Shown: one piece after another, positions 25,601 to 32,000 of the stretch | How the letters are laid out: each line of letters begins with the position of its first letter | How positions within the stretch are numbered: position 1 is the stretch's first letter | DNA from: Geotalea daltonii FRC-32 | GTDB taxonomy: Bacteria > Desulfobacterota > Desulfuromonadia > Geobacterales > Geobacteraceae | Length of the DNA: 32,000 bases | Direction: 5' to 3' | NCBI RefSeq assembly: GCF_000022265.1 | Contig: NC_011979.1 | Span: 3,390,001-3,422,000 of the forward strand | Program-made: the position numbers and the translations under genes | Notes under the pieces: model-generated | What the model was told of the DNA's origin: nothing | Databases searched by the model: none | The model's input: only the letters and a program-made list of their open reading frames with translations

Positions 25601-25723
25601 GTTTTGTCTCCTTGAGGTCATGGGTGCTAACGGAAGAATTCGACTACAGACTGCTGTGAATAAATTGGGGGTCCACGATGTCATAGCACTAAAATGTGTC
25701 CACGATGTCGTGGCACTCATCAG

Positions 25724-26113
25724 TTAGGGTTTATATCCGCCAATGTTATGCCTTGATTCAATTTTTGTAGTCCCTATTACTTCTGTGACTTTGTTGCCAG
25801 CCTCCATGTACCCTTCTCCGCCCGCAATCCGACTGCCGTCGGCAAAATTAACTATGAGTCCATAGCTTGATTCAGCAGGTGCAGACATACGGAATGTCTT
25901 TGATGTACCTGCCGTAGGGCCTTGAATCTGATGTCGTATTTTTTCATCCCTGCCGAATTTCTGAATGATCTCTATGGACTCTATTTTCTTTCCTGAATTA
26001 TTTACAAAATCAATTACCACCATGGGCGAGCCAGCATGGAATATGGAAGCAATTAATACTCCGGCTAGAAAAACTACGATGAAAGCAAAGATGAGAAGTA
26101 TTCTTTTTGACAT
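25724..26113 (-). CDS. small exported or membrane-anchored hypothetical protein (distal cassette)
   Basis: 129 aa, with an N-terminal hydrophobic anchor and a beta-rich remainder. AT-rich codon usage. Preceded by an attC-like site. Confidence 0.55.
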   Translation of the reverse strand: MSKRILLIFAFIVVFLAGVLIASIFHAGSPMVVIDFVNNSGKKIESIEIIQKFGRDEKIRHQIQGPTAGTSKTFRMSAPAESSYGLIVNFADGSRIAGGEGYMEAGNKVTEVIGTTKIESRHNIGGYKP

Positions 26114-26123
26114 TTGTTGATTG

Positions 26124-26188
26124 TCCTAACGTGGTAGGGGCGCACAGGCGGAGCGCAGCGAAGACCGTGTGCCGCCGCCTTGTTGGAA
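26124..26188 (-). repeat. attC-like recombination site (65 nt)
   Basis: Coding-strand read: TTCCAAC-AAGGC-GGCGGCACACGG-(16 nt)-CCTGTGCGCC-CCTACCAC-GTTAGGA. The 10-bp stem has two extrahelical bases on the 5' arm. It sits between a stop codon and the next start codon. Confidence 0.55.
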
Positions 26189-26196
26189 TCTACTTC

Positions 26197-29137: not shown

Positions 29138-29932
29138 CTAGTTAGAATTATCTTGTTTTTGAACTATCGCAGGGTTAGCTACCTGAAGGGAACTTGGGCC
29201 ATATCGGTAGCAATAGATAGAATATAGAAGTCCATCGAATGCAGCATTTTCGAATGGATTAAACTGAACTTTCGAATGTAAGATCATTGCTTTTCTAATG
29301 GTCTGAAGGAAGAGGGAAAGTGACTTGAGCTTAGGGCCTTCCTTGTCTTCACCTTCAATCGGAATATGACCCCATTCTTCGTTAGTTGAAGGACTCTTGA
29401 GAATAATAATTCCACGGTTCAGCACGTATATTGCCCACGGATAATTCTGTAATTCATCAGGGATGTCGGTGACAGAGTCGTACCAAGCTGACAATACCTT
29501 TTGAGTGAGCGGGACGCTCTCGTAGGCAAACAAGAACGTCGCCGGTGGAACGAATATGGATCCTCGTGTGAACGAGTACAAGTTGCGAAGCGCTTCGATA
29601 AATGTCTTCTTATTTAGTTTGGTTTTTACCTCGATTGCGCAGACTATTGCCTCTGGAGCAACAACCGCAAAATTACCCTCTCGAAAGTGGTATGCTGCCG
29701 GATTGTTCTCATCAACAATCAGAATGTCGCCTTGCTGTGACGCACCGAATTTCCTAGTGTAAGCGAAACCTGTCCGAAGCCGAAAACGTTCTGAGAGCAT
29801 GCTTTCTAGTATCGGCTTGAGAACTTCTTCGTGATACGAGCCAATTGACGGCCCGTGATTCACAAACGAAGAAACTCGCCGCAATTTAGCAGCCATTTCG
29901 TTTGCAAGTCCTAGGTAGAAATTTTCGTCCAT
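29138..29932 (-). CDS. DUF6602-family protein, predicted PD-(D/E)xK nuclease fold
   Basis: GSYHEEVLKPILESMLSERFRLRTGFAY...SQQGDILIVDENNP....VVAPEAIVCAIEVKTKLN matches the DUF6602 pattern as I recall it (GxxxE..., Q.DIIIYD, E-V-K). AAGGA RBS. Confidence 0.7.
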   Translation of the reverse strand: MDENFYLGLANEMAAKLRRVSSFVNHGPSIGSYHEEVLKPILESMLSERFRLRTGFAYTRKFGASQQGDILIVDENNPAAYHFREGNFAVVAPEAIVCAIEVKTKLNKKTFIEALRNLYSFTRGSIFVPPATFLFAYESVPLTQKVLSAWYDSVTDIPDELQNYPWAIYVLNRGIIILKSPSTNEEWGHIPIEGEDKEGPKLKSLSLFLQTIRKAMILHSKVQFNPFENAAFDGLLYSIYCYRYGPSSLQVANPAIVQKQDNSN

Positions 29933-29941
29933 GGGTTATCC

Positions 29942-30002
29942 TTCTAACGGGCATGGCTTTGACCTGCCGGTTTTCTAGGGCAGGTCGTAAGCCTTGTTGA
30001 AA
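29942..30002 (-). repeat. attC-like recombination site (61 nt)
   Basis: TTTCAAC-AAGGC-TTACGACCTGCC-(10 nt)-GGCAGGTCAAAG-CCATGCCC-GTTAGAA. It ends 9 nt before the DUF6602 start codon. Confidence 0.6.
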
Positions 30003-30070
30003 CATTTGCAGTTTTAACTTTTGAAATTTAGAGGCGCAGACCTTCTTCCGTGATCTAACAATTCTTGTGT

Positions 30071-32000
30071 CTAGCGATTCCATTCCTTTTTAAGGACTTT
30101 ATCAGAAGCTTGAATTGCCCTATCTCGTGGAGTTGATACACCAAAATCGAGCCAGTGAATTACATTATAATATTGTTGTTCATCACTAGACATATAGTCT
30201 GCAAGAAGCTTTATTAAGCGCTTCTTTGTTAACGCACGAATGCATTTTAAAGCTATACACTTTCGAACTTTTTCGTCCTCATATTGCAGCAGACGGATAA
30301 TAGTTTCATCTGTAAGTTCGCGAAAGGCTTTGTCCGGTGTCTCAACTATAAGGTAGGACAATAGCTGGCTTGGCAGCTGCATTGACAGCAGTTCTGTTAA
30401 TCTATTTCGGCCCAATGCATATATAGCTTTTGCAGAAACTTGATATTTAGAGTCTTCAGGGGTTGATAATAACAGAGTGTTTTGTCCGGCCTCCGGCCGT
30501 TTCACAGAGTCGATAATTAATTTGATGTCCTCCCATTCACCAAATTTACGAAGATACTCAACATCAGTGCTGGAGTAGTCAACAAAGCCACTCTTTAGAG
30601 CATTCCTTACAAGTCCCAAGTCCCGCAACTCGGCTTTTTGACAAATAATGTTTAAGCCCTTTCGAGTGAGACTTTTACGTTGATAATCTTCGATGCCTCG
30701 TGTCCGTTCTATAACCTCATGGTCCATAGTAAAAATTTCGGACAGCTTATTCAGATAATTTGAAAACTCCTCTTTGAATTGTTCCTCTACTGATTTCCTT
30801 AAAATATCTCCTCTTTTTTTAAATTGACGTTCAGCCAAGATGAACTTGGGGTCAAAATCAAAAATTGAGGATTTTTCGGTAATTTTTTCAAGTTCCTTTT
30901 CACTTGTTAAACGCAATGTATGATGTTGGTAGTGATTCCAATATGTTTCATCAGTTATTCCTGAAGCGATGGAAAGCATTCCTAAACCGGATTTTTGAGA
31001 TGGTTTGACAAGAATTTTTTTGGCTTCGTCATTTGAAAAAGTACGGCCGTGTTCAATGAGAGTATTAATAGCTTCATATCTTACCTTTGCATCGTTGTCG
31101 CACAACAATTGCTCTACGGTATCAAGTGGCAATGCTTTGCGTTTACGAAGAATCTCTATAGCTTTACGACGTACATTATTGCATTGCTGATCAATGCAGC
31201 TAATAAGTGATTCCGTGCTCAACGCTGCTTCATTGTCAAATAGTGCTATCATTAAATCTTGGTGGACAAATGATGGCCGAAGTTCATTAAGCGCCAAAAT
31301 CGCACATTCGCGGCTTTCACGAAGTTTAATTCGGAGGAATGCATCAGTAGCAGCATTATTTGTTTGATTGTCATTCCTGTCTAGCTCGGCACGGATAATC
31401 GAAATATCTGAAGTAATGCCAAACTCGCCAAGATAATTCAAAGCTGCAACCCTAAGCGCACTTTTAGAGTTGTCAGAAAACCAAGATTTAAGTAAAAAAT
31501 CGCGATTAAAACGTTTTCCACCGGAGGGAAGTGGCTCTGAAATCAGCTTCATCGCAGTGATAGCGTTGATTCGTCGTTCCGTAGGCCCTTTAAATGTGTA
31601 AAATGGCAGAATACTATTTGAAAACTCTCCCATTGCTGCCAGCCATCGCCAAAGAGGAACATTCTCATTGCTAAAGTTACTCAACCCACTGGCAACCAGC
31701 CCGCTTATTTCATGTTGGCCCAATTTAAATTTATCTCCTTTTGCAAACATCAGGTTTGAATCGTGAACACCAAGAGAGTACTCATCATTTCCATGTTTAC
31801 CTAATATTGTTGTGAGCAATCTAAATCGTGCGATTTCTGCACCTTCAATGGGTTCTTGTTCTAAATCCCGCTCCGTTTTTGATATGAAGTCTCGCAGAAA
31901 TTGAGCACCTTCTATGGAAAGTGGTGTTTCGAGAGGTTGTGCATTTGCATCTGATGTTTGTTGTTTTTCATCTTCACTAGGTGGGGCTTGGCTCTGGCTA
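30071..32000 (-). CDS. large HEAT-repeat protein; 5' end lies outside the window
   Basis: The frame is open from 32000 to the stop at 30071 (643 codons in the window). The track start at 31819 is an internal TTG. Repeated HEAT/PBS-lyase-like units are present (LRVAALNYLGEFG, VRRKAIEILRK, DAKVRYEAINTLIEHG, DEKVRKCIALKCIRAL). A low-complexity linker PPSEDEKQQTSDANAQP at the window edge suggests a further N-terminal domain. Confidence 0.7.
   Translation of the reverse strand, partial: SQSQAPPSEDEKQQTSDANAQPLETPLSIEGAQFLRDFISKTERDLEQEPIEGAEIARFRLLTTILGKHGNDEYSLGVHDSNLMFAKGDKFKLGQHEISGLVASGLSNFSNENVPLWRWLAAMGEFSNSILPFYTFKGPTERRINAITAMKLISEPLPSGGKRFNRDFLLKSWFSDNSKSALRVAALNYLGEFGITSDISIIRAELDRNDNQTNNAATDAFLRIKLRESRECAILALNELRPSFVHQDLMIALFDNEAALSTESLISCIDQQCNNVRRKAIEILRKRKALPLDTVEQLLCDNDAKVRYEAINTLIEHGRTFSNDEAKKILVKPSQKSGLGMLSIASGITDETYWNHYQHHTLRLTSEKELEKITEKSSIFDFDPKFILAERQFKKRGDILRKSVEEQFKEEFSNYLNKLSEIFTMDHEVIERTRGIEDYQRKSLTRKGLNIICQKAELRDLGLVRNALKSGFVDYSSTDVEYLRKFGEWEDIKLIIDSVKRPEAGQNTLLLSTPEDSKYQVSAKAIYALGRNRLTELLSMQLPSQLLSYLIVETPDKAFRELTDETIIRLLQYEDEKVRKCIALKCIRALTKKRLIKLLADYMSSDEQQYYNVIHWLDFGVSTPRDRAIQASDKVLKKEWNR

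Follow-up and report, generated by a model that had tools for sequence, protein, structure and literature searches.

What is the string of AT-rich, co-directional genes that closes a 32,000-nt stretch of the Geotalea daltonii FRC-32 chromosome (contig NC_011979.1, positions 3,390,001 to 3,422,000; hereafter the window), and do the hairpins between its open reading frames (ORFs) mark it as an integron cassette array? An earlier note, made from the letters of the window, had proposed attC sites, the recombination sites of integron gene cassettes, at three of the ORF junctions, and had placed the attachment site attI and the integrase gene intI to the right of position 32000. Our analysis leads to the conclusion, to which we assign a probability of about 0.9, that the region from 25.6 to 32 kb is the distal part of an integron cassette array in the chromosome of this bacterium. 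The element is of a known kind, that of attC-site clusters without an integron integrase (CALINs) and of chromosomal integron cassettes, and Geobacter is a genus for which both integrons and attC sites were known before (PMC2426708, PMC3001079).

The attC sites and the cassettes between them

Both strand and composition set the string apart from the rest of the window. The minus strand carries every substantial ORF listed between 25.7 kb and the window end, and the GC content of this block is 0.38-0.46 compared with 0.50-0.58 across most of 1-25 kb, which bears out the description in the earlier note; the sole exception within the block is a 1.5-kb stretch of about 0.54 that belongs to an insertion sequence (IS). 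To the right, contig L001, which a sequencing run on the same strain produced, continues the sequence for another 7.9 kb; the searches of window and contig took in 43 kb. Four sites in this sequence carry the argument:

29942..30002, minus strand: attC site S1, 61 nt, TTTCAAC...GTTAGAA, after the DUF4062-HEAT cassette; called by its fold, the architecture filter and covariance models R1 and R3
26908..26968, minus strand: attC site S2, 61 nt, ACATAAC...GTTGGAA, after the 194-aa cassette; called by its fold, the filter and R3
26124..26188, minus strand: attC-like site S3, 65 nt, TTCCAAC...GTTAGGA, after the 229-aa cassette; called by the filter, with a marginal R3 score
about 32582-32628, beyond the window on L001: attC-like site S4, TACCAAC...GTTGAAC; called by a marginal R3 score and its bottom-strand fold

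The architecture filter was our own (N4AAC, 4-6 nt, 3 bp, 1 bulge, 6 bp ... 5-9 nt, GTTN4) and was calibrated on 16 known attC sites from class 1 integrons and a Thiodictyon integron, 11 of which pass. Applied to both strands of the window, it returns six matches, compared with 1.76 ± 1.26 in shuffled sequences; half of these are S1, S2 and S3, with ends identical to the coordinates of the three hairpins in the earlier note. Their 3' heptamers (GTTAGAA, GTTGGAA and GTTAGGA, respectively) fit GTTRGRA, as had been stated. Counted from the first base of the R'' box, the bulge falls on nucleotide 16 in S1-S4, and likewise in all 16 known attC sites examined.

S1 and S2 are imperfect hairpins with 87% identity over 60 nt, and the pattern common to both has two matches in the window and none in 100 shuffles. 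Folded as single-stranded DNA, the bottom strands of S1 and S2 reach -14.3 kcal/mol (z -4.0) and -15.6 kcal/mol (z -5.1); the bottom-strand folding proposed as a check in the earlier note sets these two, but not S3, apart from shuffled sequences. The layout described for S3 is present (a 5-nt spacer, arms with an extrahelical G and C, and an 8-nt spacer), and the bottom strand of S4, when folded, shows an R box and an L box with an unpaired spacer between them and a single bulged base in the L box. A T run follows none of the stems of S1, S2 and S3.

R1 is a family-specific covariance model for Geobacterales, and R3 was rebuilt from 106 sites of other genomes and includes no sequence of the window. 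Within the window, R1 finds only S1 (78.8 bits) and S2. In the 43 kb, the top four distinct matches of R3 are S1 (75.9 bits, E 5e-21), S2 (66.8 bits, E 3.6e-18), S4 (15.1 bits, E 0.05) and S3 (13.2 bits, E 0.2), in that order, with the best noise match at 12.6 bits (E 0.29). A search against Rfam, at gathering and at permissive thresholds, gave no match in the window and no attC family.

In coding-strand order, L001 carries the 3' end of a giant gene with fibronectin type III (fn3) and SBBP domains, a 520-nt spacer, a 239-aa ORF, a KAP-family NTPase gene separated from it by 61 nt, S4 and the DUF4062-HEAT gene. The order continues in the window with S1 and the DUF6602 gene; an IS110 element and the 194-aa ORF; S2 and the 229-aa ORF; S3 and the 129-aa ORF; and finally the terminal junction and a DUF2059-EamA operon. 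Counted from an attI-like junction on L001, this makes six cassettes (239 aa with the KAP NTPase, DUF4062-HEAT, DUF6602, 194 aa, 229 aa and 129 aa). According to the ORF map and the sites, a cassette consists of one or two ORFs followed by an attC on the same strand, with short spacers, which is the make-up of a gene cassette and the polarity that had been predicted. A promoter scan of the cassettes gave no excess over shuffled sequences, as for promoterless cassettes.

Two junctions are without a clear attC:

25625..25729, minus strand: terminal junction; an R''-like CCCTAAC overlaps the stop codon of the 129-aa ORF, after which come two direct repeats of 20 nt and GTTAGCA (25631-25625)
29128..29147, minus strand: 5' part of the DUF6602/194-aa junction; an R''-like TTCTAAC (29147-29141) overlaps the stop codon, and the IS cuts in after a further 13 nt
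27554..27594, minus strand: 3' part of the same junction, with an R'-like GTTAAAT (27560-27554) just before the 194-aa ORF

The terminal junction (105 nt) has no convincing L box, and its fold reaches a z of only -1.2 to -1.8; its CCCTAAC matches the complement of the S3 R' box at 6/7 positions, and the GC content climbs to core values just past it. It is possibly a degenerate attC. At the DUF6602/194-aa junction, TTCTAAC is a 7/7 complement of the S1 R' box GTTAGAA, which opens the same cassette, and excision of the IS in silico leaves 61 nt from TTCTAAC to GTTAAAT, a length equal to that of S1 and S2. The IS-less junction does not fold (-2.7 kcal/mol, z +0.3), and it is either an eroded attC or no attC.

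Given a cut between the G and the TT of the 3' heptamer, the first heptamer of a cassette is expected to complement the R'' box at the end of that cassette, and to do so better than the two ends of a single site complement each other. The six cassettes, from the head of the array onward, compare as follows:

start GTTGGTC (in the attI-like junction), end TACCAAC (the R'' box of S4): 6/7
start GTTGAAC, end TTTCAAC: 6/7
start GTTAGAA, end TTCTAAC: 7/7
start GTTAAAT, end ACATAAC: 5/7
start GTTGGAA, end TTCCAAC: 7/7
start GTTAGGA, end CCCTAAC: 6/7

Starts and ends of cassettes are complementary at 19/24 variable positions, compared with 9/24 for the two ends of one site. Among 720 permutations, the observed pairing alone ranks first; its p-value is optimistic since GTTAAAT, CCCTAAC and GTTGGTC were picked by eye near ORF ends. 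Both perfect 7/7 matches involve independently defined sites.

The repeat family in other genomes

The stem pattern of S1 and S2 was scanned against 185,579 genomes, one per species. This yielded 77 loci, about 68 of them clear relatives, nearly all in Geobacter, Geobacteraceae, Desulfuromonadales or Pelobacter. The aligned unit reads yCCAACAAGGCTTACGACCTGCCCkAAAACCCGGCAGGTCAAAGCCATGCCCGTT. Similarity among the members spans CAAC to exactly GTT, with unrelated flanks, and this sharp limit of conservation is the behaviour expected of a site that is cut between G and TT. Across 70 members, pairing in the inner (L) stem reaches 98.7%, 7/13 pairs have changed on both sides in a compensatory manner, and the bulged base of the 5' arm is kept across the family; none of 500 shuffles reached the observed values.

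With a covariance model of the family, 106 sites are detected across 63 loci; they lie at ORF junctions, and a stretch of 8 kb can hold as many as 7. Secondary matches share the strand of the strongest match of their locus, as read off the hit table without computation. The earlier note had asked whether such hairpins would turn up scattered outside cassette-like contexts; in the relatives they form co-oriented arrays at ORF junctions.

A tyrosine recombinase is encoded in four loci (L008, L013, L054 and, truncated, L051), divergently from the sites in 4/4. The three full-length proteins score 342-393 bits on the NCBIfam model TIGR02249 'integron integrase' (cut-off 265) and are 43% identical to IntI1, and the truncated protein of L051 falls below that cut-off. 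The integrase genes, together with one on a Thiodictyon plasmid, are located as follows:

L008, 5619-6977: integron integrase
L013, 1966-3303: integron integrase
L054, 232-1665: integron integrase
L085, 8953-10317: integron integrase of the Thiodictyon plasmid

The integrases of this clade are about 450-480 aa long, with a conserved N-terminal extension of about 130 aa, without a Pfam match, that precedes the SAM-like and catalytic domains; metagenomes hold thousands of integrases with such an extension. L085 comes from Candidatus Thiodictyon syntrophicum (plasmid pTs485, 78.5-97.8 kb) and holds a complete integron: its integrase has 454 aa, its attC sites are homogeneous and 97 nt long, a DarT toxin is among its cassettes, and an IS91 and an IS110-family transposase lie within the array.

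Cassettes that are 100% identical over the 120 nt upstream of the site are followed by unrelated DNA in different genomes, with the break at GTT (L016 versus L032/L061 versus L044; L036 versus L067). The earlier note had proposed to look for presence/absence differences with breakpoints at the G/TT; the G. daltonii locus itself shows no polymorphism beyond a 1-nt indel, all three sequencing runs that contain the locus being of the same strain. In a Geobacteraceae genome whose EamA protein is 80% identical, the neighbourhood differs, and this genome cannot reveal an empty site.

In three loci, a group II intron breaks into the 5' end of the site at the bottom-strand TTGT|T and replaces the CAAC of the R'' box with ...CACGCCCATGACGGGCGTAC:

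L023, about 3700: group II intron, with an opposite-strand ORF of 511 aa for a reverse transcriptase and maturase
L028, 2600-4836: group II intron, with the same kind of opposite-strand ORF
L073, about 2030: group II intron, with the same kind of opposite-strand ORF

Insertion at TTGT|T is the pattern of group IIC-attC introns. The accession CP001390 we take to be that of the G. daltonii FRC-32 genome. Introns of this group have been listed for G. sulfurreducens and Geobacter sp. CP001390 (PMC3001079), and integron integrases in Geobacter are on record (PMC2426708).

Because of the covariation, the link with IntI, the co-oriented arrays, the exchange of cassettes at GTT and the group II introns, the 60-nt repeat is the attC family of Geobacterales integrons, which excludes a repetitive extragenic palindromic (REP) element or a terminator. 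From established integron biology, the bottom strand of each attC (the plus strand of the window) would fold into an imperfect hairpin whose R and L boxes the IntI tyrosine recombinase would bind via the bulged bases, cutting between G and TT of the 3' heptamer. The cassette would then be excised as a circle and re-inserted at attI, where an upstream promoter would express it.

The head of the array, the integrase and competing readings

The upstream end of the array does lie to the right of position 32000, where the earlier note had placed attI and intI. A further site, S4, is found there, and beyond it, about 3.3 kb past the window end, a junction that looks like an attI, followed upstream by the giant gene:

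L001 4440-4627 (about 35.3-35.5 kb in window coordinates): attI-like junction, four ATAATATTAGATGC followed by AATGAGTTGGTC
L001 1-4215 (about 35.7-39.9 kb): giant fn3/SBBP gene, on the same strand as the array and directly upstream of it, encoding more than 2000 aa

One of the four ATAATATTAGATGC copies is inverted. The core AATGAGTTGGTC resembles the intI-adjacent junctions of L054 (TACGAGTTGTCG) and L008 (AACGAGTTGAAC), and the latter is likewise preceded by four repeats. Side by side, the two putative attI regions (L001 4440-4627 and L008 5030-5140) have an AAYGAGTTG crossover core in common, and 20-30 nt upstream of it each has a lineage-specific motif of about 14 nt in four copies (ATAATATTAGATGC in G. 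daltonii, CTTATATAGGAAAC-like in L008); these repeats may be accessory integrase-binding sites. The giant protein is of a secreted type and combines several fibronectin type III domains with SBBP beta-propeller repeats; its gene ends in a GC-rich, terminator-like hairpin.

The integrase half of the prediction has fared differently. A tblastn search with three Geobacterales IntI proteins against the window and L001 found nothing better than E 1.3, and no intI lies within the 4 kb of the attC cluster that would make the integron complete. IntegronFinder defines a CALIN by the absence of a neighbouring intI and by two or more attC sites that share a strand and are separated by less than 4 kb (PMC4889954). 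The spacings here are 2.6 kb between S4 and S1, 3.0 kb between S1 and S2 and 0.7 kb between S2 and S3. Because no integrase gene adjoins it, the array is a CALIN-type cluster rather than a complete integron, its sites being called by R3 and the architecture filter. Present-day mobility would depend on an IntI encoded elsewhere and acting in trans. Furthermore, the IS, one frameshift variant and the two degraded junctions point to partial decay of the array.

Several results weigh against the assignment of the region to an integron array. The window and the 10.8 kb beyond its end contain neither an intI nor a remnant of one. S3 differs in sequence from S1 and S2 and folds no better than shuffled sequences (z -0.75), and the R3 scores of S3 and S4 are marginal (E 0.2 and 0.05). 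A recognisable attC is absent at two junctions, the IS-less DUF6602/194-aa junction and the terminal one. A surrogate attC model, R2, built from 13 class 1 and Thiodictyon sites, is silent on S1-S4; this model is insensitive, missing most long known attC sites, and is hence uninformative (it detects only 60-nt aadA-like sites and misses those of IMP-1, dfrA1, dfrA12, arr-3 and VIM-1). Finally, the locus is represented by a single strain, so the mobility of cassettes is seen in other genomes rather than in this array.

The alternative that survives best holds that the array is a piece of a complete, active integron whose intI lies farther off, behind the fn3 gene or a rearrangement, or elsewhere in the genome and acts in trans. 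The attI-like junction with a core like those next to intI in other loci speaks for it, as do the intact state of S1 and S2, near the family consensus, and the presence of at least one other attC locus, with a group IIC-attC intron, in the genome (PMC3001079); moreover, half of the CALINs lie in genomes that encode IntI (PMC4889954). Against it stand the lack of intI over about 5.8 kb upstream of the first cassette and 25 kb downstream of the last, and the decay suggested by the IS and the two degraded junctions. No G. daltonii IntI appears among the best 120 of more than 7000 relatives of a Geobacter IntI either, a weak argument given that thousands of relatives exist. On balance we regard a distant integrase of this kind as possible, with the odds against it. 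A more specific version, in which the array is an orphan yet working platform with an attI-like site of its own (the four 14-nt repeats and the AAYGAGTTG core) served by IntI in trans, we hold to be unlikely; if it were true, Geobacterales integrons would be dispersed, multi-locus systems that stock defence-type cassettes.

Another possibility is that only S1 and S2 are attC sites and that S3, S4 and the R''-like heptamers arose by chance, hence that the cassettes are fewer, larger and multi-genic. The marginal scores of S3 and S4, the poor fold of S3 and the expectation of about 1.8 chance filter matches per window are in its favour. Nevertheless, S3 and S4 both lie at ORF junctions on the coding strand and score above all noise, the S3 R'' box TTCCAAC is a perfect complement of the S2 R' box GTTGGAA, and the bottom strand of S4 adopts the canonical order of R box, spacer and L box with one bulge, all of which makes a chance origin quite improbable. 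Least of all do we credit the idea that the hairpins are REP-like repeats or terminators scattered in Geobacter genomes, with the genes forming an ordinary genomic or defence island. In its favour, the sites are hairpins rich in GC that lie between genes, downstream of ORFs, an exact pattern match occurs only once per 8 kb in most of the 77 loci, and this locus is without an integrase. Against it, the stems lack a T run; conservation passes beyond the stem to AAC and GTT and ends there; within arrays the sites strictly share one orientation, and IntI is divergent from them in 4/4 loci; cassettes are exchanged with a break at GTT; group IIC-attC introns are inserted where they would be expected; and the heptamers at cassette starts and ends are complementary.

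Cargo, the insertion sequence and likeness to known systems

The cassettes of the array carry the following genes, in addition to those for the KAP NTPase and the 239-aa protein beyond the window:

30071..32000, starting at about 32554 beyond the window, minus strand: DUF4062 and HEAT-repeat protein, 827 aa; Pfam DUF4062 and HEAT_2
29138..29932, minus strand: DUF6602 nuclease-like protein, 264 aa; Pfam DUF6602 (E 9e-23)
26963..27547, minus strand: 194-aa protein with an R-x5-H motif
26197..26886, minus strand: 229-aa membrane protein Geob_3122, with a circularly permuted domain like that of acyl carrier protein (ACP)
25724..26113, minus strand: 129-aa protein with an N-terminal hydrophobic segment and no profile match

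The N-terminal 187 aa of the DUF4062-HEAT protein match the PADLOC candidate PDC-S60 (E 5.5e-33), the DUF6602 protein matches PADLOC PD_DExK (E 4e-21) and a NucC-type effector (E 2e-11), and the KAP NTPase matches the PADLOC candidate PDC-S49 (E 1e-72). These profiles point to a probable role of the three as compact anti-phage genes; chromosomal integrons have been reported to be enriched in defence cargo (bioRxiv 10.1101/2024.07.02.601686). The cargo proposed by the earlier note is thus upheld as far as the NucC/PD-DExK-like DUF6602 protein and the PDC-S60-like DUF4062-HEAT protein are concerned, whereas its HEPN-like label for the 194-aa protein has only the R-x5-H motif behind it, and this protein has no match in Pfam, NCBIfam or PADLOC. 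Profile searches likewise assigned no family to the 239-aa protein. In one run of the same strain (L004 1562-1822), a 1-nt indel shortens the 129-aa ORF to 86 aa.

NCBIfam ACP models match Geob_3122 in permuted order, with residues 3-41 corresponding to ACP 38-77 (helices II-III) and residues 190-229 to ACP 1-40 (helix I); two predicted transmembrane helices lie between. The chain break falls exactly at the position that the phosphopantetheine serine would occupy, the protein starting with MGLDGVEL and ending with DFGID. The permuted layout is that of a family of 17 proteins, and the termini are common to all 17 homologues. An AlphaFold model has a predicted local distance difference test score (pLDDT) of 82, and Foldseek returned local ACP matches only. 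An origin of the permutation through circularisation of the cassette was rejected: the same permutation occurs outside integrons, with one homologue directly upstream of priA.

The interrupted junction contains the following element:

27595..29127, minus strand: IS110-family IS of about 1533 bp; transposase 28890-27691; termini GGGGTC...GACCCC; 3' hairpin

Its transposase carries the Pfam domains DEDD_Tnp_IS110 (PF01548) and Transposase_20 (PF02371) and scores 179 bits on NCBIfam NF033542, the IS110 RNA-guided transposase (cut-off 140). A 237-nt non-coding region precedes the transposase gene, as is characteristic of the IS110-type layout, with its long non-coding region upstream of tnp (PMC11187229), and the element has no long terminal inverted repeats. 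The ends were set by alignment with 80 metagenomic relatives, which share the GGGGTCTACCA start, the 3' hairpin and the terminal GACCCC; a right end at 27645, where an assembly unitig breaks, was rejected in favour of 27595 on the strength of the conserved terminal hairpin and GACCCC. The end hairpin (27595-27690) is followed by GACCCC, the inverse of the GGGGTC start, and its stem and the terminus are conserved in relatives (L096, L097, L106, L109, L116 and L122), the loop not. A separate assembly unitig of 1483 nt covers the IS. Same-strain unitigs break inside the hairpin loop (27645), and because of this the genome is suggested to hold several copies of the IS that differ in the loop.

The IS begins 13 nt past TTCTAAC. 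We considered and rejected a dedicated preference of this element for attC: thirty relatives sit in unrelated flanks that are purine-rich on the left and not attC-like. Because these flanks are not attC-like, the insertion looks incidental rather than targeted. The non-coding region of the IS yielded no convincing guide/target match.

Outside the array, the first 25 kb of the window hold housekeeping genes, including those for enolase, MiaA, MutL, aminopeptidase N, a multihaem cytochrome and PAS kinases. One further protein lies just downstream of the array:

23421-24464: EamA/ZIP protein, part of the DUF2059-EamA operon at core GC, downstream of the array; 100% identical to a protein recorded for G. 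daltonii FRC-32

An exact 32-nt direct repeat occurs at 20234-20265 and 20415-20446, 181 nt apart; each copy bears a terminator-like hairpin (GCATCCGGAAAGGGTGC, then a T run, on the minus strand) and has no Rfam match.

Taken together, these results document an attC family of about 60 nt for Geobacter and Desulfuromonadales along with an integrase clade of about 450 aa, and add candidate compact defence genes (a PDC-S49-type KAP NTPase, a PDC-S60-type DUF4062-HEAT protein and a DUF6602 nuclease) to the cassette pool of a metal reducer of environmental importance. They also illustrate that a reader can recognise the attC architecture from raw sequence. The findings open no new question, since integrons, CALINs, defence cargo and the insertion of IS and introns into attC are all established.

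Among the known systems, the array most readily compares with CALINs (PMC4889954). Like them, it has at least two attC sites in the same orientation with gaps of less than 4 kb, lacks an intI or pseudogene within 4-10 kb, contains an IS, and consists of cassettes most of which have no homologue in databases. Unlike them, it seems to keep at its head an attI-like junction with four direct or inverted repeats. With sedentary chromosomal integrons, such as the superintegron of Vibrio cholerae, it shares the chromosomal location, AT-richer cassettes, defence-like cargo and homogeneous, lineage-specific attC sites (S1 and S2 being 87% identical and near the Geobacterales consensus). However, the array has only about six cassettes and no adjacent intI, several of its cassettes are unusually long (2.6 kb), and its attC sites are about 60 nt in length, compared with about 120-130 nt for the V. 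cholerae repeats (VCR).

The class 1 attC of aadA1 agrees with the G. daltonii sites in the order R''-spacer-L''-loop-L'-spacer-R', the AAC/GTT cores, the length of about 60 nt, the 5-nt left spacer and the bulged base at nucleotide 16 (C on the top strand, G on the bottom strand). It differs in that the arms are dissimilar in sequence, the right spacer is 5-6 nt rather than the 8-9 nt of G. daltonii, and the A.A mismatch of G. daltonii takes the place of the second extrahelical base; the model built from class 1-type sites missed S1-S4. Finally, the IS1111-attC group (ISPst6, ISKpn4) is described as targeting attC (Tetu & Holmes 2008, as cited in PMC11187229). The G. daltonii IS resembles this group as an element of the DEDD/IS110 superfamily within a cassette junction of an integron array, and departs from it in its IS110-type layout and in the non-attC flanks of its relatives, which leave dedicated attC targeting unsupported.

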